Sequence record: PP400785
Source of the DNA: Escherichia phage FL08
Length of the DNA stretch: 64,000 nt
Reading direction: 5' to 3' (one strand)
Below the pieces are notes generated by a model. It saw nothing but the letters and a program-made list of their open reading frames with translations. It did not search any database and was not told where the DNA came from. How positions within the stretch are numbered: position 1 is the stretch's first letter; every line of letters begins with the position of its first letter. Below, in pieces: positions 9,899 through 50,027 of the stretch. The position numbers were made by a program, and so were the translations under genes.

Positions 9899-10863
9899 TG
9901 TATTCTTTAGAGGAATTTAATAATCAAGCAATAAACGCAGATTTCCAACGTAATAATATGTTCAGCTGTGTTTTTGCTACAACTCCATCAACTAAAAGCT
10001 CTTCGTTGATAAGTTCAATTAGCAACTTTTCTTATAATAACTTGGGCCTAAATTCAGATTGGTTAGGATTAACTCAAGGCGATATTAATCAGGGAATTAC
10101 TACGCTAATTACAGCTGGCACACAAAAACTGATAAGAAAATCAGGGGTTAGTAAATATCTTATTGGTGCCATGAGTCAACGTACAGTTCAAAGTTTATTA
10201 GGCTCATTTACAGTTGGTACATATTTAATTGACTTCTTTAACATGGCATATAACTCATCTGGATTGATGATATACTCTGTAAAAATGCCAGAGAATAGAT
10301 TATCCTATGAAACTGACTGGAACTATAATTCTCCTAATATTCGTATAACTGGGAGAGAATTAGACCCTTTGGTTATTTCATTCAGAATGGATTCAGAAGC
10401 TTGTAACTATCGTGCAATGCAAGACTGGGTTAACGCTGTTCAAGACCCAGTAACTGGATTGCGTGCTTTGCCGCAAGATGTCGAGGCTGATATTCAGGTT
10501 AATCTTCATTCTCGCAATGGATTACCACATACTGCGGTGATGTTCACTGGATGCATTCCAGTGTCCGTAAGCGCTCCTGAGTTATCATATGATGGAGATA
10601 ACCAAATAACTACATTTGATGTTACTTTTGCGTATAGAGTCATGCAGGCTGGAGCAGTTGATAGACAAGCTGCGCTTGAATGGCTTGAATCTGCTGCTAT
10701 AAATGGTATTCAAAGCGTTCTCGGAAATAGTGGAGGTGTCACTGGACTATCTAATTCGCTTTCACGACTTAGTAGATTAGGGGGAACTGCAGGAAGCATT
10801 TCAAATATTAACACTATGACAGGAATTGTCAATTCGCAAAGTAAAATATTAGGAGCAATATAA
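9898..10863 (+). CDS. 54: Baseplate tail tube initiator gp54
   Basis: 321 aa; ATGA overlap with gene 48; followed by intrinsic terminator. Confidence 0.9.
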   Translation: MYSLEEFNNQAINADFQRNNMFSCVFATTPSTKSSSLISSISNFSYNNLGLNSDWLGLTQGDINQGITTLITAGTQKLIRKSGVSKYLIGAMSQRTVQSLLGSFTVGTYLIDFFNMAYNSSGLMIYSVKMPENRLSYETDWNYNSPNIRITGRELDPLVISFRMDSEACNYRAMQDWVNAVQDPVTGLRALPQDVEADIQVNLHSRNGLPHTAVMFTGCIPVSVSAPELSYDGDNQITTFDVTFAYRVMQAGAVDRQAALEWLESAAINGIQSVLGNSGGVTGLSNSLSRLSRLGGTAGSISNINTMTGIVNSQSKILGAI

Positions 10864-10867
10864 CAAT

Positions 10868-10896
10868 GGGGACCTTTCGGTCCCCATATTTTTATT
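10868..10896 (+). terminator. Intrinsic terminator after gene 54
   Basis: GGGGACC-TTTC-GGTCCCC hairpin followed by ATATTTTTATTT. Confidence 0.7.
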
Positions 10897-11182
10897 TACG
10901 GAATGAAATGAAAGCAGCAACTGAAGCAACTAAACTGTCTTCAATATAAACTTCAATTTTTACCGGAGCTTCTGACTCAAATTTACCTGTTACTACACCC
11001 TGAAAAATACTTTCAGTCTGTTCTGGCTTTGAAAAATTTTCAGAAGGAAAAATTCCGAACTTTTTATCTGTTCCAAAAATTTTGATAAATTCATCGTAAA
11101 CTGCTTCATTAAAAGCATTATCAGCAGGAATAACGCCTTCAACTACAAGTTCTTGACCTAAAAAGCGCAAAGAAGATTTCAT
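10892..11182 (-). CDS. Hypothetical protein (alt-upstream region)
   Basis: 96 aa; GAGG SD; early promoter at 11214-11242 directly upstream. Confidence 0.65.
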   Translation of the reverse strand: MKSSLRFLGQELVVEGVIPADNAFNEAVYDEFIKIFGTDKKFGIFPSENFSKPEQTESIFQGVVTGKFESEAPVKIEVYIEDSLVASVAAFISFRK

Positions 11183-11213
11183 TTTGTGTTCCTCATGTTA
11201 TGTCAGTAAGACT

Positions 11214-11242
11214 ACTATAACACAACACGAGGGACTTGTAAA
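11214..11242 (-). promoter_or_regulatory. Early promoter (TTTACA-N17-TATAGT)
   Basis: Minus strand GTTTACA - 17 nt - TGtTATAGT; drives the 96-aa ORF; part of a ~50-bp repeat also found at 26446-26500. Confidence 0.6.
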
Positions 11243-13300
11243 CTACATCTTGAACTTTTTAGACATTCCGTTGATGTTAACCAAAGAAGCTAAGATTTGA
11301 GAAACTTCGTTTTCCTCTTCTTTTGATTCTTCTACAAGGAATTGATTAAATCCAGCCATTGGACGAACTTCACCAGTTTCCATTAGATGGTCGCCATCAT
11401 ATACTGATTCTTCTAATTGTTCAGAAGGAGGAACGATTGTACCTTCGATTAGATACTTGTTATAAGCAGTTTCTTTCATAAAGTAAGTACTTACTTTATT
11501 AATCTTCAGTAAAATTCCACGTGGTAGAATAACTTCAGCTTCTGACGGAAATCCTGATAAATGACCCGGAACGATAACTTTGATTCGCTCAGCTCCTTTA
11601 ATTACCATACCCACGCTAGTTTCAGCATCTTCATTAGCATATGTAGAATGACTACCCATATGCATCAAATCTTCTGCATCAACGGAACCTTCTCCTTCAC
11701 CAGAAAATACTGCGCCGGAATCATCTAGAGCCATATAGTTTTTACCATGCTCACCGAAGATATTTGGTTTAAGCGATGTGGATACGAAGTTCTTGAAATA
11801 GAACATTTTATTTTCAATGTTATGACGCAAAGTTTTAAAGGTAACTTCTTGTCCACGGTAAAGTGTAGTTCCTGGAGGAAGAACTGAACCTTTAGCGAAT
11901 GCAGAATCAAGCGTCTCAATATGTTTAATAGCTCGTTCCATATATTCTTCACGGGTAGAATCTGGTTTACCCAAAAGGAACGAGTTCATTTCAACATATG
12001 AATCTGCACAATAATCTTCAATTACATCAGATTCAGCTTGAGTTAATCCTTTTGGAGTTACTTCAGTGCTTGCGTATTCATATGCCTGAGCAGCAGATTC
12101 ATTAATCAATTTATAAATGCCATTCATGACAAATTGAATAATAGCTGTCTTTTCATCTGGCGTAGCTTTAGAACCTTTAACCAAATCATTGATAATTTTC
12201 TTAATAACATCAAAGCTATTAGAAATATTAATATCAGCAAGATCGCTTAAAATTTTATCAGTCTTATAATCAAAGAATTCTTTATTCTTTAAATATTCTT
12301 GAGAACCTTGATATGTTATATCGCTCTGTAACTTGATAGATGGATCACGTAAACGTGCATGGGCTAATGCAATATGATTTCGGAAGCTTTCGAGTTCATA
12401 ATCACTAGATTTAAAACGAGAAGCGCTTCTCATACCGCCTATAGCTCCTTTGCTGAAGTTTGAACCAATTTGAATAACGCCAGAGTTCATTGGTCCTTCT
12501 GCTTTATACACCGGAACTTTAGATTCAAACTCTTGATATTTCTTAGCAGCGAAGCTATCACCCTGAAGTGAAGCATCAACAGTAGAATATTGAGCTTGTG
12601 CTGCTAATCGACGACTAATTTTAGTTTTCTGAATAACAGCTTGGTCCGTGCGCTTATCATTTTCTAAAGCAATAGAAGCAGCAACAGCAACAGCTTTAGG
12701 AACAGCATTACCTGTTTTAACATCTACATAAACATCACCAACCTTTGATTCAACTTTTGTGAATAACTCAGTTGAAATAGGAGGTACACCTGGAATGTCT
12801 TCTAAATTGGCATTTTTACGATAAACCATAATATATGCGTACTTTTTATCATAATCCCAGATTTCCTTTAAAAGAACATATCGACCTGCTCCTTTAGTAC
12901 GTACTAAACGGTCAGCAATAACTTGCATTTGACGAGCAGCGCCATTTGTTTTACTCTTTAGTACGCGGAATAAGCATGCATCAATTTTATACTGTTTCAT
13001 TGTTTGAAGAGCAGTATCAAAAACAGCGTTAATGACGCCAATTGGATTTCCACCCAAGTTTCTAAGTTTAACCAGTGATAATTTCTCGTTGACACCTATC
13101 ATTACGATATGCATCATTTTATCGCCCGGCTTAACGTTTTTATTTGTATCACCTCCAGAGGTGTATGTACAAAATCTAAATCCAGGAAGCACGCTTTCTT
13201 CGCCGGCTTGAATAGCAAAAATTTGAGGTATTTTATGCTTAGGATTTAAGTTAACAACCGGCGCCGAAGCGCCGTCAAATAATTCTGTAATAAGTTCCAT
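11243..13300 (-). CDS. Alt-like ADP-ribosyltransferase paralog
   Basis: 685 aa; N-terminal ~280 aa highly similar to the adjacent Alt; ART motifs retained (LYRGQ Arg, FVSTSL STS, EAEVILPRG ExE). Confidence 0.85.
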   Translation of the reverse strand: MELITELFDGASAPVVNLNPKHKIPQIFAIQAGEESVLPGFRFCTYTSGGDTNKNVKPGDKMMHIVMIGVNEKLSLVKLRNLGGNPIGVINAVFDTALQTMKQYKIDACLFRVLKSKTNGAARQMQVIADRLVRTKGAGRYVLLKEIWDYDKKYAYIMVYRKNANLEDIPGVPPISTELFTKVESKVGDVYVDVKTGNAVPKAVAVAASIALENDKRTDQAVIQKTKISRRLAAQAQYSTVDASLQGDSFAAKKYQEFESKVPVYKAEGPMNSGVIQIGSNFSKGAIGGMRSASRFKSSDYELESFRNHIALAHARLRDPSIKLQSDITYQGSQEYLKNKEFFDYKTDKILSDLADINISNSFDVIKKIINDLVKGSKATPDEKTAIIQFVMNGIYKLINESAAQAYEYASTEVTPKGLTQAESDVIEDYCADSYVEMNSFLLGKPDSTREEYMERAIKHIETLDSAFAKGSVLPPGTTLYRGQEVTFKTLRHNIENKMFYFKNFVSTSLKPNIFGEHGKNYMALDDSGAVFSGEGEGSVDAEDLMHMGSHSTYANEDAETSVGMVIKGAERIKVIVPGHLSGFPSEAEVILPRGILLKINKVSTYFMKETAYNKYLIEGTIVPPSEQLEESVYDGDHLMETGEVRPMAGFNQFLVEESKEEENEVSQILASLVNINGMSKKFKM

Positions 13301-13303
13301 GAT

Positions 13304-15352
13304 TTATCCTTGAACGAACTTGTAAGGCATGTTTGTAATATCTATGCAAGACGCAATAATTCCAAGAGATGATTCTACTTTCTGTTTAACATTTGATGAA
13401 ACAAATGATGCAAAGTCAACTCTATCTTCTATATCACCTGTCATTGTAACTACTTCGCCGGTTTCCATTAAACGGTCACCGTCATAAATTACTGATTCGG
13501 TGAGTTCTTCGGTGGTCATAACTTCAGCTTGAATAAGCTTGTTGTTAGTTTTGACTGTTCCATCATTGTAAGATGCATCAGTTATTTTATTAACTTTGAC
13601 CATTAATCCACGTGGCAAAATGACTTCCATTTCATTTGAAGGCGCTAAACTTCCACCGGGTAAAACAACATTGACTTTATCAGCCCCAGTAATAACCCAT
13701 CCAATTCCGACTAAATTATCGCTAGAATTAACAAGCCCTTCATCATTTTTATCGATAGAAATGTTTAGACGCTTTTCATCTGGTAAAACACCAACAGCTG
13801 AATCAGTCATCCAAGTACCAAAAATGTTTGGATATAATGATGTTGATACAAAATTTCTAAAATAAAAAACTCGATTTTTTACCATTGCTTCGTATATTGA
13901 AGGTAACATTCGTTGTGAACGATACAAAGTAATACCTTTTGGTAATCGTTCACCATTTTTAAAGGCTGAATCTAAATTATCAATAGCTTTTTCTATGTCA
14001 GATGCTGTCAAAATACTTGTACGCTCATCTGGATTATATAATCCCAAAAGAGCATTATTTATGTCTACATATCCTGAACCTACGTATTCACGAATTCCGC
14101 GTTTTTGTGCTGGTGTGTATTTAGATGAATCTTTATTTTCGACTATAGGATGTAATGACCATCCAGCTGTAAGAGCATATCCACGTAATTCTCTTCGAAT
14201 AATCTTTGTTTTTATTGCATTCCAAGAATTTTGTACTAACTCATTTGCAGCATCTTGGTTTAAATGCGAATGTTTGTTAATATTTCTTTCAAACCAAGCA
14301 CCTTTATATTTTTCTAAAGTATCATCGACGATAGAAGCAATAGTTTCTAAAGTTTTTATTGAAGTAATAGATTCTTTTCGTAATTTTTCTAAAGCTTTAT
14401 TTTTTATTTCTGCATTAATAATGGATTCTTTATCTTCAGGAATTATAGAAGCTTCTCTGAATGCCATCCCAGCTGTAACACTGCTAAGAGCATTCTCTAG
14501 TGCAAATCCTGAAGTAGAAATTACCGTTAATTCATTAGAATCAGAAATTAAAGGCGCATCAGCGGGTTTATTTAATTCTGCTGCTGAAGCCTCAAATTTT
14601 TGAAACATCGGTGTTTCAAATCTAGAAGATTCCAATGACTGACTTTGTGCAATTGCTCTACGGGAAATTTTAACTTTAACGATTACAGCTTGGTCAGAAC
14701 GTTTATCATTTTCTTGTGCAATAGATGCTGCAATTGCCTCATTTTTGGTTACTTGAGCTCCGGTATCTTTATTGATATAAACATCACCGACCTTCGATTC
14801 AACTTTAGTAAAGAGCTCGGTACTAATTTCCGGAACTCCTGGAATGTCTTCTAGTGATACATTTTTGCGATGTATAAGAATATATGCATACTTTTTATCA
14901 TAATCCCAGAGTTCCTTAAGAAGGACGTATCTGCCACCTGAACGACTACGGATAAGTCTATCAGCAATAACTTGAATTTGTCGAGCTTGACCAGCGGTTT
15001 TAGACTTAAGAATACGAAGCATACAAGCATCAATTTTATACTGACGCATTGTTTGCATTGCAACAGTAAAAACTGAATTGATATAATTAATTGGGCTTGG
15101 ACCAAGACCTTTTAATTTAGCAATTGAACCTTTAGCGGTTAATGTAAAAGGAACAATATGCATCATTTTATCGCCCATTTTTAAATCGCGATTAGTATCA
15201 CCTCCAGATGTATAGGTACATAAACGAAAGCCTGGTTGTTCAATTGCATCATCAACATGAACTGAAAAAATTTGCGGTATTTTCTTCTTTGGATTTAAGT
15301 TTGTAATCGGAAGAGTAGTATCTTCGTCAAATAATTCTGTAATAAGTTCCAT
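13304..15352 (-). CDS. alt: Alt ADP-ribosyltransferase (capsid-packaged, injected)
   Basis: 682 aa from second Met (track ORF starts MM); N-terminus MELITELFDEDTTLPITNL matches T4 Alt; motifs LYRSQ, FVSTSL, EMEVILPRG; late promoter upstream. Confidence 0.9.
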   Translation of the reverse strand: MELITELFDEDTTLPITNLNPKKKIPQIFSVHVDDAIEQPGFRLCTYTSGGDTNRDLKMGDKMMHIVPFTLTAKGSIAKLKGLGPSPINYINSVFTVAMQTMRQYKIDACMLRILKSKTAGQARQIQVIADRLIRSRSGGRYVLLKELWDYDKKYAYILIHRKNVSLEDIPGVPEISTELFTKVESKVGDVYINKDTGAQVTKNEAIAASIAQENDKRSDQAVIVKVKISRRAIAQSQSLESSRFETPMFQKFEASAAELNKPADAPLISDSNELTVISTSGFALENALSSVTAGMAFREASIIPEDKESIINAEIKNKALEKLRKESITSIKTLETIASIVDDTLEKYKGAWFERNINKHSHLNQDAANELVQNSWNAIKTKIIRRELRGYALTAGWSLHPIVENKDSSKYTPAQKRGIREYVGSGYVDINNALLGLYNPDERTSILTASDIEKAIDNLDSAFKNGERLPKGITLYRSQRMLPSIYEAMVKNRVFYFRNFVSTSLYPNIFGTWMTDSAVGVLPDEKRLNISIDKNDEGLVNSSDNLVGIGWVITGADKVNVVLPGGSLAPSNEMEVILPRGLMVKVNKITDASYNDGTVKTNNKLIQAEVMTTEELTESVIYDGDRLMETGEVVTMTGDIEDRVDFASFVSSNVKQKVESSLGIIASCIDITNMPYKFVQG

Positions 15353-15375
15353 CATAGCCTCTCTAGTGTTTATTC

Positions 15376-15383
15376 TATTTATA
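15376..15383 (-). promoter_or_regulatory. Late promoter TATAAATA upstream of alt
   Basis: TATAAATA on minus strand ~20 nt upstream of alt ATG, consistent with alt being a late, virion-packaged product. Confidence 0.6.
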
Positions 15384-15388
15384 AAATT

Positions 15389-15406
15389 AAAGGCCCGAAG
15401 GCCTTT
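15389..15406 (-). terminator. Hairpin / probable terminator
   Basis: AAAGGCCCGAAGGCCTTT; identical 18-mer recurs at 63318-63335. Confidence 0.5.
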
Positions 15407-15593
15407 AGTAATCTAGTGGTAAGAGAGTACGATATATTTCAAACTTTGGTCCTTTTTCATAGGCATCAAATGTTTCTGTAAATTTATTATAAGCGTATGC
15501 ATCTACAAATTCGAGAATGACTTGTGATACAGAAGTAGAAACATCTCCACCTTCTTTTTGAGCAATGACAATTGTTTCTAAGTAAGCTTTCAT
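15405..15593 (-). CDS. Hypothetical protein
   Basis: 62 aa; ATGA overlap with gene 30 stop. Confidence 0.55.
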   Translation of the reverse strand: MKAYLETIVIAQKEGGDVSTSVSQVILEFVDAYAYNKFTETFDAYEKGPKFEIYRTLLPLDY

Positions 15594-17053
15594 AAACCAG
15601 TTACCTCATGAAAATCACCAAATACATCCTCGAATGTATTAGCTTTAGTTTTATCTTCACGTAAACGAATCGCAATCGGAAGAAATAATTTAACGTAATC
15701 AGTGCGGCCATCAGATTTTAACCAACCGTTGCATTCGCACTCTAGAATTTTTCCAATATAATAATTTTGGTTTTCCATAATGCGAGTACGGTCAAGTTCA
15801 TGCGATTTTACACCGGCTTTATCTTTTAAGCCTGAACCAGCATTTACCTTAATTTTTCCACACTCTGATTCAAGAATAAATCCACCCGCTTTAGTAGGGT
15901 CTTTACGGTGAGGATAAATTCCTACAATTTTTAAATCAACATCAATTACTTCTTTAAATTTATAGAGATTTTTTGAACGAGCATTTTCCCACAATCCATC
16001 GGTATTTTTGAGAATAATACCTTCAAGACCTTGGTCAATATACTTTTTATAAATTACCTTAGCTTCATCTAGGTTATTTACTACCTGGTTTTCAATTAAA
16101 ATTACTTTATCATAACCTGATGTCATTTGTTCTAGTTTAGAAAAACGTACATCATATTTCAAACGAAATGCAGGAAGACCGTATATTTCTACCAACGGGA
16201 CATAATCCCAGACCTGAAACTTCATGCATTGAGCTTCTTTTTCAGAAATGGTTCCCTTTAAAGATTTATTGGCGATGCCATTAGATGCAGTACGTGATTC
16301 AGCTACTTCGGCGAATTCTTTAGCTTTACTAATTTCAGGATAAGCATCAAAAAGAAAATCTAGGCCTTCTGACTCCTTTTCAACTTGCTCATGGTATACC
16401 AATTCGCCATCAATTAACACACCTTCTGGATGAATCTGGCGAGCTTCTGCAGTCATTTTGATTAACTCTTCCTTAAGAAGATCTAATCCTAGATATTCAT
16501 TACCAGCTCGCGATAAAAGACGAACATCATCTAATTCATCGCCTCGGACTTCAGCAAAACACCGAGCTCCATCTGCTTTTAATTGCGCAAAGGCTGGAAA
16601 CTTGATATTCTTACTAATGCCTTTTTCATCATAAGAACTTGCCAGCATTTGAGGTTGTTCAGGAATTAAACCTGGCCAAACTTTGTTTGCAATAGATACT
16701 GAAGCACCGCATTCAAGGTCTCGCATCATCACTCGACGCAAAACTTCAACATCATCCTTTTTACCATCAGTGATATATCCAGTTAATTCCTCAATTGCTG
16801 CATTTCCAGTCAATTTCCGAGTAGCTAACGTGAATTCAATGAAGTCAAGCATATCGGTAATGGTCAGCATTCCAAAACTCTGGGTAGCAATACCAGGTTT
16901 AGGCCATTTCTTAATATAATACTGTAACCCACGAGAATAAGTCAGACGATATACTCGTTTAAGCAATTCATTATCTTTATTCTTTTCAAGAATTGCTTGC
17001 TTCTGCTTAGTTGATCCAATAGATGCTATTTCATTCAGAATTTTAAGAATCAT
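15590..17053 (-). CDS. 30: ATP-dependent DNA ligase
   Basis: 487 aa; adenylation motif KADGARC; sequence recognisable as T4 DNA ligase. Confidence 0.95.
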   Translation of the reverse strand: MILKILNEIASIGSTKQKQAILEKNKDNELLKRVYRLTYSRGLQYYIKKWPKPGIATQSFGMLTITDMLDFIEFTLATRKLTGNAAIEELTGYITDGKKDDVEVLRRVMMRDLECGASVSIANKVWPGLIPEQPQMLASSYDEKGISKNIKFPAFAQLKADGARCFAEVRGDELDDVRLLSRAGNEYLGLDLLKEELIKMTAEARQIHPEGVLIDGELVYHEQVEKESEGLDFLFDAYPEISKAKEFAEVAESRTASNGIANKSLKGTISEKEAQCMKFQVWDYVPLVEIYGLPAFRLKYDVRFSKLEQMTSGYDKVILIENQVVNNLDEAKVIYKKYIDQGLEGIILKNTDGLWENARSKNLYKFKEVIDVDLKIVGIYPHRKDPTKAGGFILESECGKIKVNAGSGLKDKAGVKSHELDRTRIMENQNYYIGKILECECNGWLKSDGRTDYVKLFLPIAIRLREDKTKANTFEDVFGDFHEVTGL

Positions 17054-45874: not shown

Positions 45875-48800
45875 ATGGCTACTTTAAAACAAATACAATT
45901 TAAAAGAAGCAAAACTGCAGGAGCACGTCCTGCCGCTTCAGTATTAGCCGAAGGTGAATTGGCTATAAACTTAAAAGACCGTGTACTTTTTACTAAAGAT
46001 GACCAAGGAAATATTATTGATCTGGGATTTGCTAAAGGCGGTAGTATTGACGGGAATGTTATTCATACAGGCAATTATAACCAAACTGGCGATTATACTT
46101 TAAATGGCGTCTTCACTCAGACTGGTAATTTTAATTTAACCGGTACTGCTCGAGTAACTCGTGATATTATTGCCGCTGGGCAGATTATGACTGAAGGCGG
46201 TGAACTTATTACAAAAAGTTCAGGTACAGCACATGTTCGTTTTTTCGATGGCAATAGTCGCGAACGTGGAATCATTTATGCCCCGGCTAATGATGGTTTA
46301 ACTACACAAGTACTTAATATCAGGGTTCAAGACTACGCCGCTGGTGATGAAAATACCTACGCGTTTTCAGGTACTGGTCTTTTCACAGCTCCAGAAGTTT
46401 CTGCGTGGAAATCTATTTCGTCTCCACAAATTCTGACCGACAAAGTTATTACAAACGGGAAGAAGGCAGAAGATTATGATATCTATTCATTGGCAAATAA
46501 CACCCCATTATCTGAAAGCACTACTGCTATTAATCATCTTCGTGTCATGCGTAATGCAGTCGGTTCTGGTATTTTCCATGAAGTTAAAGACAATGATGGG
46601 ATAACTTGGTATGCAGGTGATGGACTTGACGCCTATCTTTGGTCGTTTACTTGGTCAGGTGGATTGAAAGCGGGACATTCTATTTCTGTAGGCACCCCAG
46701 GCGGCCCCAAAGGATACTCTGAATTAGGGACTGCTTCAATTTCTCTTGGCGATAATGATACCGGATTAAAATGGTATCAAGATGGTTATTTCTATGTAGT
46801 AAACAATGGTACGAGAACTTTCCTTTATAGTCCTGAATCAACCGTAAGCCTTAGAAAATTTGTAGCTGGATATTCTACTAACGGAACCGATTTAACTACT
46901 CCTCCAACTGAAAACTATGCTCTCGCTACTGTCGTGACATATCACGATAATAACGCGTTTGGAGATGGTCAGACTCTTTTAGGATATTACCAAGGCGGTA
47001 ATTATCATCACTATTTCCGTGGTAAAGGTACTACAAACATTAATACTCACGGCGGTTTGTTAGTTACTCCTGGTAATATTGACGTTATTGGTGGTTCTGT
47101 TAATATCGATGGTAGAAATAATAATTCAACTTTAATGTTTAAAGGCTATACCATGGGTCAAAGCTCCGTTGATAACATGTATATAGCTGTTTGGGGAAAT
47201 ACTTTTACTAATCCAAGTGAAGGTACCCGTAAAAATGTCATGGAAATTTCTGATGATATTGGATGGATGCATTATATTCAACGAACAACTGCAGGTAAAG
47301 TCGAATCGGTTCTAAACGGCACCCAGATTGTTAATGAAAACTTGACCGTAGTAAAAAATGCTACATTTGGTGGTACAATCAGCGCAGCAGGTGAAATTTC
47401 ATCTGGGGCTGTGAATGCGCTTCGTATTTGGAACGCAGATTATGGAGCTATTTTTAGACGTTCAGAAGGTAGTCTTCATATTATTCCAACTGCTTATGGT
47501 GAAGGTAAACATGGTGATATCGGCCCACTTCGCCCGTTTAGTATGGCTTTAGATACTGGTAAAGTTACTATTCCAGATTTACAATCAAGTTACAATACGT
47601 TCGCAGCAAACGGCTATATTAAATTTACTGGTCACGGTGCGGGCGCTGGCGGTTATGATATTCAATATGTTCAAGCGGCTCCTATTTTCCAGGAAATCGA
47701 TGATGATGCTGTAAGCAAATATTATCCTATTGTTAAACAGAAGTTTTTAAATGGTAAAGCCGTTTGGTCTTTAGGTACTGAAATTAATTCAGGTACATTC
47801 GTTATTCATCATCTGAAAGAAGATGGTTCACAAGGCCATACGTCTCGTTTTAATCAAGACGGTACTGTTAACTTCCCAGATAACGTTGCTGTCGGCGGCG
47901 GTGAAGCTACTATTGCTCGTAATGGTAACATCTGGTCTGATATCTGGAAAACGTTTACTTCAGCAGGCGACGTAACTAATATTCGCGATGCTATTGCTAC
48001 TCGCGTTGCCAAAGAAGGCGACACGATGACCGGGCGCTTAACTCTTAATGCAAACTCTGATGCCATCGTTATTAACAGCACCGCAACCGAATCTGGCTAT
48101 TTGAAAGGACAAAAAGCCGGCGTTGATAACTGGTATGTAGGTAATGGTGGGACTGATAATGCTATATCGTTTTATAGTTTCCGAACTAATTCAGGCATAT
48201 ATGTTAATAATGGTGGTGATATTGCTTTAAACCCGGAAGGGTCTGCCACTTTTAATTTTAATAGGGATCGAATTTATATAAATGGGTCAGTCTGGGCCGC
48301 ACACCAGGCTGGCGATTGGGGAAATCAATGGCGCCAGGAAGCTCCTGTATTTGTGGATTTTGGTAATGTCGGTAATGATAGTTATTATCCTATTATTAAA
48401 GGAAAATCTGGTATTACTAATGAAGGTTATATATCTGGTGTAGATTTTGGTATGCGCCGTATCACTAATACATGGGCACAAGGTATTATTCGTGTAGGCA
48501 ACCAGGAAGGCGATTCTGACCCACAAGCGATCTATGAATTCCACCACAATGGAGTTCTGTATGCTCCTAATATGGTTAAAACTGGGGCAAGACTATCAGC
48601 TGGCGGTGGTGACCCGGTGTGGACTGGACCATGTCTTGTTATTGGTGATAATGATACCGGATTAGTTCATGGTGGTGATGGGCGAATTAACATGGTTGCA
48701 AATGGAGTGCATATTGCTTCGTGGTCAGCTGCTTATCAGATCCATGAAGGTCTTTGGGATTCAACTGGTGCTTTATGGACTGAAACAGGAAGAGCTATTA

Positions 48801-49204
48801 TTTCTTATGGGCATTTAGTCCAACAAAGTGATGCCTATTCCACATATGTCCGCGATGTTTATGTTCGTTCTGATATTCGTGTTAAAAAAGACCTTGTTAA
48901 ATTTGAAAATGCTTCTGAGAAGCTTTCTAAAATTAACGGTTACACTTATATGCAGAAACGTGGAACAGATGAAGAAGGTAATCAGAAATGGGAACCTAAC
49001 GCTGGTTTGATAGCTCAAGAAGTTCAAGCTATTTTACCAGAATTAGTTGAAGGTGACCCGGATGGTGAAGCTTTACTTCGTTTGAACTATAACGGTGTAA
49101 TTGGTTTAAATACAGCTGCAATCAATGAGCATACTGCAGAAATTGCGGAACTTAAATCAGAAATTGAAGAACTTAAAGCATTAGTTAAATCATTGTTAAA
49201 ATAA
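45875..49204 (+). CDS. 37: Long tail fiber distal subunit gp37 with C-terminal intramolecular chaperone (peptidase S74-like) domain
   Basis: 1109 aa; last ~111 aa (from [10 protein letters not shown], nt 48869) resemble the self-cleaving intramolecular chaperone domain of phage fibers/endosialidases; T2-type architecture. Confidence 0.9.
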
Positions 49205-49207
49205 TAA

Positions 49208-49226
49208 GAGGGGCTTCGGCCCCTTG
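49208..49226 (+). other. GC hairpin with UUCG-type loop between genes 37 and 38 (no T-run)
   Basis: GAGGGGCTTCGGCCCCTT immediately upstream of gene 38 SD; likely RNA stability/processing structure rather than terminator. Confidence 0.45.
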
Positions 49227-49235
49227 GAGGTTTAT

Positions 49236-50027
49236 ATGGCAGTAACAGGACCGTGGGTAGGATCGTCTGCAGTAGTTAATACAGGACAAAATTGGATGGG
49301 TGGTGCCGCGCAGAGATTGAGAATGGGAATTCCGTTTTGGATGAGTAATATGATAGGTCGATCTGTTGAAATAATTCACACGCTTGGAGCAGACCATAAC
49401 TTCAATGGTCAATGGTTCCGAGATAGATGTTTTGAGGCAGGTAGTGCACCTATAGTGTTTAATATTACTGGAGATTTAGTATCATATTCTAGAGATGTTC
49501 CTTTATTCTTCATGTACGGAGATACACCAAATGAATATGTTCAGTTAAATATTATTGGCGCTCATATGTGGGGTAGAGGTGGACAAGGTGGATGGACTCA
49601 TTCCGGTGGAGATGGTAATGGACAACAAGGCGGGCATTGTATTCAAAACGACATTGGTGGACGATTAAGAATTAACAATGGTGGAGTAATCTGTGGTGGC
49701 GGAGGCGGTGGTGGCGGCATTGCTTACCGTGTTCACTCAGGGGCAAACTGGAAAGATATTGGTGGTGGCGGCGGAAGACCATTTGGCCCAGGTGGTGGCG
49801 GTGGTTACTCAGGTGGCGCAGCTTCATACGTCGCCCCAGGAGGTGGTTACCAATACGGAAATGCTCACTCTGGCCAGGGCGGCGATGCCGGAGGAAATGG
49901 ACAAAATGCCTGGTCTGATGGTGGTAAAGTTCTAAAGGTTGGTGCAGGAGGAGCAGCAGGTTATGCTGTCATAGGATCTGCTCCAACTTGGCAAAATGTT
50001 GGAGTAATATATGGTCCAAGAGTATAA
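49236..50027 (+). CDS. 38: Tail fiber adhesin gp38 (T2-type, glycine-rich motifs)
   Basis: 263 aa from ATG with GGAGG SD (track starts at upstream TTG); multiple poly-Gly motifs [23 protein letters not shown] separating variable segments. Confidence 0.88.
49680..49830 (+). repeat. GGN-rich low-complexity tract encoding poly-glycine motifs of gp38
   Basis: ggtggcggaggcggtggtggcggc and ggtggtggcggcgg runs. Confidence 0.7.

Follow-up and report, generated by a model that had tools for sequence, protein, structure and literature searches.

Tandem Alt-type ADP-ribosyltransferase genes, alt and alt2, at the alt locus of a T4-like Escherichia phage

Alt is the textbook case of a phage enzyme that is injected together with the DNA to reprogramme the host. 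About 40 copies of T4 Alt are present in each head and enter the cell with the DNA, and the prohead protease gp21 recognizes the motif L/I-x-E (PMC9026906). By mass spectrometry, T4 Alt was shown to be a protein of 68.2 kDa after cleavage at ITE-6, which removes six residues from the N-terminus, and at LTE-619, which removes 63 from the C-terminus (PMC5694885). According to PMC5512222 and PMC9503650, T4 Alt uses NAD+ to ADP-ribosylate host proteins, among them RNA polymerase alpha; Depping et al. 2005 is cited there for a report that T4 Alt modifies many proteins. Here we describe the alt locus in a stretch of 64,000 nucleotides (nt) from the T4-like Escherichia phage FL08 (sequence record PP400785), hereafter called the window; all coordinates are positions within it unless another stretch is named, and (-) denotes the minus strand. 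The locus contains two adjacent genes, alt (paralog A) and alt2 (paralog B). We consider it likely that these are two functional, co-transcribed late ADP-ribosyltransferase (ART) genes whose products are both packaged, trimmed by gp21 and injected, and that Alt2 most likely acts on host targets different from those of Alt.

Alignment of A and B with BLASTP yielded 41% overall identity with an E value of 2e-157, far past chance. Pfam PF03496 (ADPrib_exo_Tox, gathering cut-off 23.4 bits) matched A at 3e-36 (125 bits) and B at 6e-20 (71.9 bits). The PHROG 802 profile was matched over positions 2-674 of 674 by residues 1-681 of A (E 4.6e-262) and by residues 1-685 of B (E 2e-256), and both proteins carry all of the features by which the Alt family, as represented by PHROG 802 and T4 Alt, is recognized at the sequence level. 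The catalytic arginine, the S-T-S triplet and the E-x-E motif are aligned in A (LYRSQ) and B (LYRGQ) and are invariant in an alignment of 19 homologs. An earlier reading of this DNA (the original prediction) had proposed tandem Alt-type ART paralogs that both retain this R-S-ExE signature. Both claims were borne out, and careful alignment showed no loss of a catalytic residue. It had also called for comparison of the pair with T4 and other T-even phages. As judged from sequence, A is the ortholog of T4 Alt, to which it is 99% identical at the same length, and B corresponds to Alt2, which is intact in T2.

Identity between A and B was distributed unevenly along the proteins. Residues 1-238 are 67-68% identical overall (55-75% per 40-residue block), the helical mid-region (residues 239-415) is 10-20% identical, with 10-12% for the mid-domain, the ART region is 36-41% identical, and the C-terminal tail is about 42% identical with a conserved island, YDGDxLMETGEV. 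The stretch between the STS and ExE motifs differs in both length and sequence. The description of the N-terminal region as nearly identical was thus an overstatement, as only MELITELFD is the same in both proteins. Similarly, the proposed division into a conserved N-terminal and a divergent C-terminal half holds for the N-terminus and the centre, but not for the C-terminal end, which is conserved as well; conservation at both ends thus encloses a divergent core.

An AlphaFold2 model of B (predicted local distance difference test score 73, predicted template modelling score 0.60, with low confidence for the loop at 517-555) consists of an alpha/beta N-domain (residues 12-227), a helical region (approximately 250-470), an ART domain (approximately 470-625) and a disordered tail. 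Foldseek comparison of the model with the PDB gave 75 matches at E 1e-3 or better, and the top listed ones were all ART toxins. The ART domain matched Vis, Certhrax, CDTa, C3, VIP2 and iota toxin, the best match being Vis (4xzk, E 3e-7, TM-score on target 0.62). This domain is therefore predicted by the model to have the fold of the C3/VIP2-type R-S-E clade. A sequence search of the PDB found no solved Alt or Alt2 structure and returned weak CDTa matches for A (E 0.008-0.05) and none for B, and NCBIfam contained no model matching either protein. PF26846 is listed in precomputed Pfam annotation on nearly all full-length Alt homologs (P0001-P0120) and presumably represents the Alt N-terminal region.

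Both proteins contain ITE-6 as well as an aligned L-x-E motif about 55-63 residues from the C-terminus. The calculated mass of A residues 7-619 is 68,192 Da, in line with the published value, confirming that the cleavage sites of T4 Alt can be mapped onto A. The corresponding motif in B, LEE-631, is aligned with LTE-619 and is followed by SV(I)YDGDxLMETGE; mature Alt2 is predicted to comprise residues 7-631 (69.1 kDa). Comparable ends are found outside this genus. An N-terminal L/I-x-E followed by (L/V/I)-(F/L)-(D/E) is present in most full-length paralogs of Dhakavirus, Gaprivervirus, Biquartavirus and uncultivated contigs, and YDGDxLMETGE occurs near the C-terminus in most full-length paralogs of several genera, being absent in SP18 alta and the Krischvirus KFS-EC gene. 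Together with the MELITE and the aligned LEE-631 of B, the recurrence of such ends in other genera is good indirect evidence that packaging and processing of Alt2 follow those of Alt.

Over the 4.9-kb region containing the locus (10800-15700), the window shares 100% identity with Escherichia phage vB_EcoM_G4498 (Tequatrovirus gee4498), and at least 80% of this region is covered in 234 phage records. The order on the minus strand is gene 30, alt.1, a hairpin, the late promoter, a ribosome binding site, alt, alt2, an early-promoter-like site, alt.-3 and a bidirectional terminator that faces gene 54, and the gene order between gene 30/alt.1 and alt.-3/gene 54 agrees with that of T4, T2 and G4498. 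The second paralog, originally placed upstream of alt, actually lies downstream of it in the direction of transcription. A late promoter ahead of the pair had been predicted correctly: the exact T4 consensus, TATAAATA, precedes alt, and no other copy lies in the interval from 4.6 kb to 21 kb. The bare octamer is not enriched in the window (11 found versus 9.75 expected), so the evidence for this promoter is its position, not its count. Our scan of the window found no late promoter belonging to alt2 itself, as the only copy of TATAAATA in this interval is the one that precedes alt. The gap between alt and alt2 is 3 nt (TAA-ATC-ATG), AAGGA is embedded in the 3' end of alt, and the DNA is free of terminators from alt through alt.-3, the next terminator occurring only after alt.-3. 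Because alt2 is without its own late promoter, starts 3 nt past the alt stop codon and has AAGGA ahead of it, the simplest reading is that alt and alt2 are co-transcribed from the alt late promoter and are probably translationally coupled.

The promoter arrangement and the processed ends also bear on the possibility that Alt2 is a non-virion protein that acts late in the producing cell, much as ModA and ModB act unpackaged, its N-terminal similarity to Alt reflecting shared ancestry only. Stand-alone ART open reading frames (ORFs) with ExE and without the N-domain lie beside full-length alt in Krischvirus KFS-EC (274 residues, L009 6053-6877) and in Aeromonas phage 31 (319 residues, L007 2058-3017), showing that unpackaged ARTs can occupy this locus, and the literature search found no proteomic evidence of Alt2 in virions. 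However, Alt2 has kept MELITE, the whole N-domain and the aligned L-x-E/YDGDxLMETGE, which correspond to the processed ends of virion Alt. The end features and the N-domain are the most conserved parts of the family, with a ratio of nonsynonymous to synonymous substitution rates (dN/dS) of 0.02 for the N-domain of B, and alt2 is served only by the late promoter ahead of alt. We regard a non-virion role as improbable and favour packaging of both proteins.

Comparison of B with its T2 and WL-3 orthologs yielded dN/dS values of 0.02-0.06 across the N-domain, mid-domain, ART and tail; alt2 is under strong purifying selection. Searches with tblastn identified B, intact and at 95% identity or higher, in approximately 396 phage records including T2 and RB6. 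These results are difficult to reconcile with Alt2 being a decaying or catalytically dead duplicate heading for the state of T4 alt.-1/alt.-2. Such decay has occurred elsewhere, as T4 and about 91 records carry a deleted, frameshifted remnant, and in an IMG/VR contig (L019 7001-9123) the second alt gene is split into ORFs of 392 and 315 residues. Nevertheless, the ORF is intact in about 400 records, the low dN/dS extends to the ART, all of the catalytic residues are kept, and the Pfam score of B is well above the gathering cut-off. From the dN/dS values and the intact catalytic residues we conclude that alt2 is not a decaying pseudogene, and this explanation is disfavoured as highly improbable.

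The original prediction had left open whether the T4 counterpart was already annotated as an Alt paralog. The T4 record does flag it as alt-derived, although T4 contains only the remnant alt.-1/alt.-2 (NP_049810 and NP_049809). In this record, alt.-1/alt.-2 are attributed to duplication of the initial portion of alt; Nolan et al. 2006 (PMC1524935) counted them among the alt duplications. In our alignments, alt.-1/alt.-2 correspond to codons 1 to ~117 of B, and they have residues specific to B rather than to A (GASAPVV, IQAGEESVLPGFRF). The corresponding profiles, PHROGs 23015 and 15247, match B at E values of 2e-40 and 1e-37, and A at 1e-21 and 2e-19. Compared to the window, the T4 sequence (L002 4066-4451) has a 1-nt deletion that splits the reading frame and a 1,699-bp out-of-frame deletion between CTAAA(G/A)AGT repeats, both copies of which are present in alt2. 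The larger deletion accounts for the odd C-terminus of Alt.-2, which runs into the 3' untranslated region of B. The deletion junction is found in 91 phage records, and in the other ~400 matching records its two halves lie apart, as in the intact gene. These data are better explained by decay of a full-length B-type paralog than by partial duplication of alt.

The relationship between the two effector modules was examined with separate trees for the N-domain, mid-domain and ART, built from 19 full-length Alt proteins of eight or more lineages with 100 bootstrap replicates. The N-domain tree groups proteins by genome or genus: all Tequatrovirus copies cluster with a bootstrap value of 94, the three QL01 copies with 70, and QL01 genes 2 and 3, which are 89% identical, with 100. 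In contrast, the mid-domain and ART trees follow module type irrespective of genus, pairing B with QL01 gene 3 (100/84), the T2-type allele with QL01 gene 1 (100/100), and QL01 gene 2 with SP18 altb (100/100). The alternative groupings, N-domain versus mid-domain/ART, were recovered in 0 of 100 replicates. The module of B resembles that of Dhakavirus QL01 gene 3 (45% identity in the mid-domain and 56-61% in the ART) and does not group with A. The N-domain thus tracks the phage lineage, and the helical domain plus ART tracks module type across genera and appears to be swapped as a cassette, with the cassette of B representing an old lineage apart from that of T4 Alt.

Exchange of this kind is also apparent at the alt position itself, which has two alleles. 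The T4-type effector module is present at 90% identity or higher in 173 records, and the T2-type allele encodes 697 residues. When 13304-15352 of the window was compared with T2 (L003 1904-3997) and QL01 (L005 1864-3948), T4-type and T2-type alt DNA were 98-100% identical over the first 720 nt and again from nt ~1816 onwards, and 40-75% identical in between. The ART part of the T2-type allele has 83-93% nucleotide identity to Dhakavirus QL01 gene 1, compared to 45-58% for the N-domains. Near-identical flanks around a divergent core that is close to Dhakavirus point to exchange of cassettes between genera. The positions of the breakpoints match those of the predicted interdomain linker (approximately residue 238) and the conserved EVILPRG region. 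As a broader view, with about an even chance of being correct, Alt proteins would be modular injected effectors in which a lineage-specific packaging frame carries exchangeable cassettes, one to three of them stacked against different host proteins or defences; Alt2 would be a distinct-target, possibly anti-defence member that T4 has lost.

Grouping of the N-domains by genome could alternatively result from recent gene conversion between the tandem copies rather than from functional constraint. Besides the bootstrap values with which the Tequatrovirus copies (94) and QL01 genes 2 and 3 (100) cluster, this explanation draws on the first 27 nt, which encode MELITELFD and are the same in alt (15326-15352) and alt2 (13274-13300), synonymous positions included. 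A micro-conversion tract could account for this identical start, as could nucleotide-level selection acting on the start of translation or on the targeting peptide. Beyond this segment, third-position identity in the N-domain is only 54%. Comparison of the A and B N-domains yielded a synonymous divergence (dS) of ~1.25, which is saturated, with 68% nucleotide identity and a dN/dS of 0.23 that is indicative of constraint. The dS and third-position values exclude recent homogenization of the two N-domains in FL08, and their similarity is accounted for by constraint. Moreover, grouping by genome could arise equally from foreign modules entering resident N-domain frames, as seen for the T2-type allele. 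We therefore consider gene conversion an unlikely source of the N-terminal similarity, and constraint the preferred one.

Since the effector modules of A and B come from different ancient lineages, different target sets are expected, as the original prediction had suggested. Most likely, judging from these modules, the host proteins modified by A differ from those modified by B, with possible overlap, and the two enzymes may counter different defences. A recent preprint reported that T4 Alt, but not Bas37 Alt, rescues plaquing on Mokosh type I cells (10.1101/2025.11.20.689424). Alt2 was outside the scope of that work, but the result supports functional divergence among Alt variants. It also argues against Alt2 being a redundant dosage copy, injected to raise the ART dose on the same substrates as Alt (RNA polymerase alpha Arg265 and others). 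Redundancy would fit with the arginine-specific ExE motif and the architecture that A and B have in common, with the vigour of T4 in the absence of Alt2, and with the finding that Alt itself is non-essential (PMC9026906). Yet a duplicate should either stay similar or be lost, whereas A and B have the low mid-domain and ART identities given above and an unlike STS-ExE region, and both module types are kept side by side under purifying selection in at least Tequatrovirus and Dhakavirus. We think it quite unlikely that Alt2 merely adds dosage.

According to the mechanism that we propose, each ART would consist of four parts: an N-terminal propeptide of six residues, the last three of which form the gp21 site I-T-E; a basic alpha/beta N-domain of ~230 residues (isoelectric point ~9.6), with a presumed role in prohead-core incorporation, DNA co-ejection or both; an effector module made up of the helical domain and the C3/VIP2-type R-S-ExE ART; and an acidic C-terminal propeptide that is cut off at an L-x-E site. 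Late transcription of alt and alt2 would supply both proteins to the prohead core, where gp21 would trim both of their ends. Mature Alt, and presumably Alt2, would leave with the DNA at the next infection and use NAD+ to mono-ADP-ribosylate arginines of host proteins. Divergence is greatest in the helical domain and the variable STS-ExE loop, and it is probably these elements that recognize the substrates. Four points weigh against two injected enzymes with separate targets. T4 and about 90 relatives are without Alt2 through deletion, indicating that it is dispensable on some hosts at least. The late promoter is a consensus match in the canonical place and not transcript data for phage FL08. 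The literature search gave no direct evidence of Alt2 in virions, cleaved, injected or active. Finally, ExE, which is associated with arginine specificity, is present in both A and B, and overlap between their targets could be large.

The features of the locus are compiled in Table 1. The terminator-like hairpin between alt.1 and the late promoter sets the gene 30/alt.1 unit apart from the alt genes; within that unit, alt.1 and the end of the ligase gene share a 4-nt overlap. On the other side of the pair, alt.-3 is a neighbour rather than a paralog and has an early-promoter-like site of its own. T4 Alt.-3 mutants with a C-terminal extension block CmdA degradation and thereby escape CmdTAC defence (PMC11618068). 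The terminator right past the alt.-3 stop codon is where the read-through of such extension mutants would run. Matches from the sigma-70 and terminator scans inside coding regions were at chance level and were disregarded. Elsewhere in the window, at approximately 48000-50000, the GC skew is positive and local G+C rises to 0.43; the counterpart of this region in the matching G4498 record comprises the gp37 C-terminus, a gene annotated as the gp38 tail-fibre adhesin, and the holin gene.

Table 1. Features of the alt locus in the window (aa, amino acid residues)
Feature	Position	Strand	Details
gene 30 (DNA ligase)	15590-17053	(-)	
alt.1	15405-15593	(-)	62 aa; Pfam PF24647 'Phage blade protein', E 2e-29
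Terminator-like hairpin	15388-15407	(-)	AAAGGCCTTCGGGCCTTT and T-run, 3' of alt.1; terminator in NC_054918.1 annotation
Late promoter	15383-15376	(-)	TATAAATA, exact T4 consensus; ~21 nt upstream of alt start, just past the hairpin
Ribosome binding site	15358-15363	(-)	GAGAGG; 5 nt ahead of second ATG (15352)
alt (paralog A)	13304-15352 (15355 from first ATG)	(-)	682 aa (683 from first ATG)
alt, propeptide	15335-15352	(-)	aa 1-6
alt, basic N-domain		(-)	aa 7-238
alt, helical domain		(-)	aa 239-415
alt, ART		(-)	aa 416-619
alt, catalytic residues	13625-13921	(-)	R478, 13919-13921; S503-T504-S505, 13838-13846; E574-M-E576, 13625-13633
alt, LTE-619	13496-13504	(-)	C-terminal gp21 motif; site shown for T4 Alt
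alt, C-propeptide	13307-13495	(-)	aa 620-682
alt2 (paralog B)	11243-13300	(-)	685 aa
alt2, propeptide	13283-13300	(-)	MELITE, aa 1-6
alt2, basic N-domain	12587-13282	(-)	aa 7-238
alt2, helical domain	12026-12586	(-)	aa 239-425
alt2, ART	11408-12025	(-)	aa 426-631
alt2, catalytic residues	11534-11857	(-)	R482, 11855-11857; S507-T508-S509, 11774-11782; E587-A-E589, 11534-11542
alt2, LEE-631	11408-11416	(-)	predicted C-terminal gp21 site
alt2, predicted C-propeptide	11246-11407	(-)	aa 632-685
Deletion repeat, 5' copy	12953-12961	(-)	CTAAAGAGT, in alt2
Deletion repeat, 3' copy	11254-11262	(-)	CTAAAAAGT, alt2 codon 680
Early-promoter-like site	11214-11242	(-)	TTTACA-17-TATAGT with TG extension, G before it; consensus match; between alt2 and alt.-3
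alt.-3	10892-11182	(-)	96 aa, DUF5498
Bidirectional terminator hairpin	10866-10887		between alt.-3 and gene 54; ends alt transcription unit

Tandem Alt paralogs with an intact R-S-ExE signature are already on record in RefSeq, in the BASEL phages, as alta/altb, in the T4 record and in Nolan et al. 2006, and the annotation of the alt/alt2 pair in hundreds of phage genomes makes the finding an ordinary one. In RefSeq, both genes of G4498 are named 'Alt-like', B being entered as a second 'Alt-like RNA polymerase ADP-ribosyltransferase' in this phage, in T2 and in many more, and the BASEL phage records list 'Alt' and 'ADP-ribosyltransferase Alt2' (bas35_0031, bas36_0031 and bas38_0034). The name Alt2 occurs only in record notes, and the searchable literature contained no paper on its activity or targets; a search covering Alt2 function, virion proteomics of phages with two Alt proteins, and alt.-1/alt.-2 returned only Nolan et al. 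2006 and database notes. The deletion mechanism of T4 alt.-1/alt.-2, the exchange of effector modules and the retention of both gp21 sites in Alt2 appear to be undescribed in the searchable literature and are modest additions.

Nearly all work on Alt has been done in T4, which is atypical in having only the wreck of a second gene. If our inference holds, most Tequatroviruses, including T2, inject two different ARTs, and if the modular reading is true, the loss of Alt2 by T4 would explain why Alt2 was never studied. Alt2 and the alternative alt alleles are reasonable candidates for determinants of host range or anti-defence activity in therapeutic T4-like phages, and the cassette architecture suggests that nature offers a scaffold on which foreign cargo might be packaged.

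Among known systems, polymorphic toxin loci offer an analogy in which a conserved delivery part is combined with an exchangeable effector; Alt differs in having no immunity gene. A second analogy is provided by T4 IPI-IPIII, in which a short N-terminal targeting and cleavage peptide ending in L/I-x-E precedes variable cargo at a hypervariable locus (PMC9026906). Unlike IPI-IPIII, Alt keeps a large conserved N-domain when mature and has a C-terminal propeptide. C3 exoenzyme, VIP2, iota-Ia, CDTa, Vis and Certhrax have the catalytic fold and R-STS-ExE in common with the Alt proteins at 14-21% sequence identity, but these bacterial toxins rely for delivery on secretion or binary-toxin pores instead of a phage head and tail. 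T4 ModA and ModB belong to the same R-S-E ART clade as Alt (PMC5512222); unlike Alt they are short, early, unpackaged proteins without the N-domain and propeptides (PMC5512222 and general knowledge).

The closest relatives of the FL08 pair are found within the Straboviridae. The alta/altb pairs and triple arrays of SP18, IME08, QL01 and Aeromonas phage 31/44RR (PMC1524935) are likewise tandem full-length Alt genes at the same locus, and the effector module of QL01 gene 3 is the counterpart of that of B. These arrays differ by genus in copy number (one to three) and module set, and the N-domains are lineage-specific, those of Tequatrovirus and Dhakavirus being 42-47% identical. T4 Alt (gpAlt, NP_049811), an NAD+--arginine ADP-ribosyltransferase, shares its locus, late promoter position, ITE-6 and LTE-619 with A, from which it has no substantive difference, and shares its architecture and catalytic triad with B at 41% identity. 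Finally, the BASEL Alt2, the second Alt-like gene of T2 and G4498, and that of RB6 are the same gene as B, being 99-100% identical with the same position and length and showing no differences.

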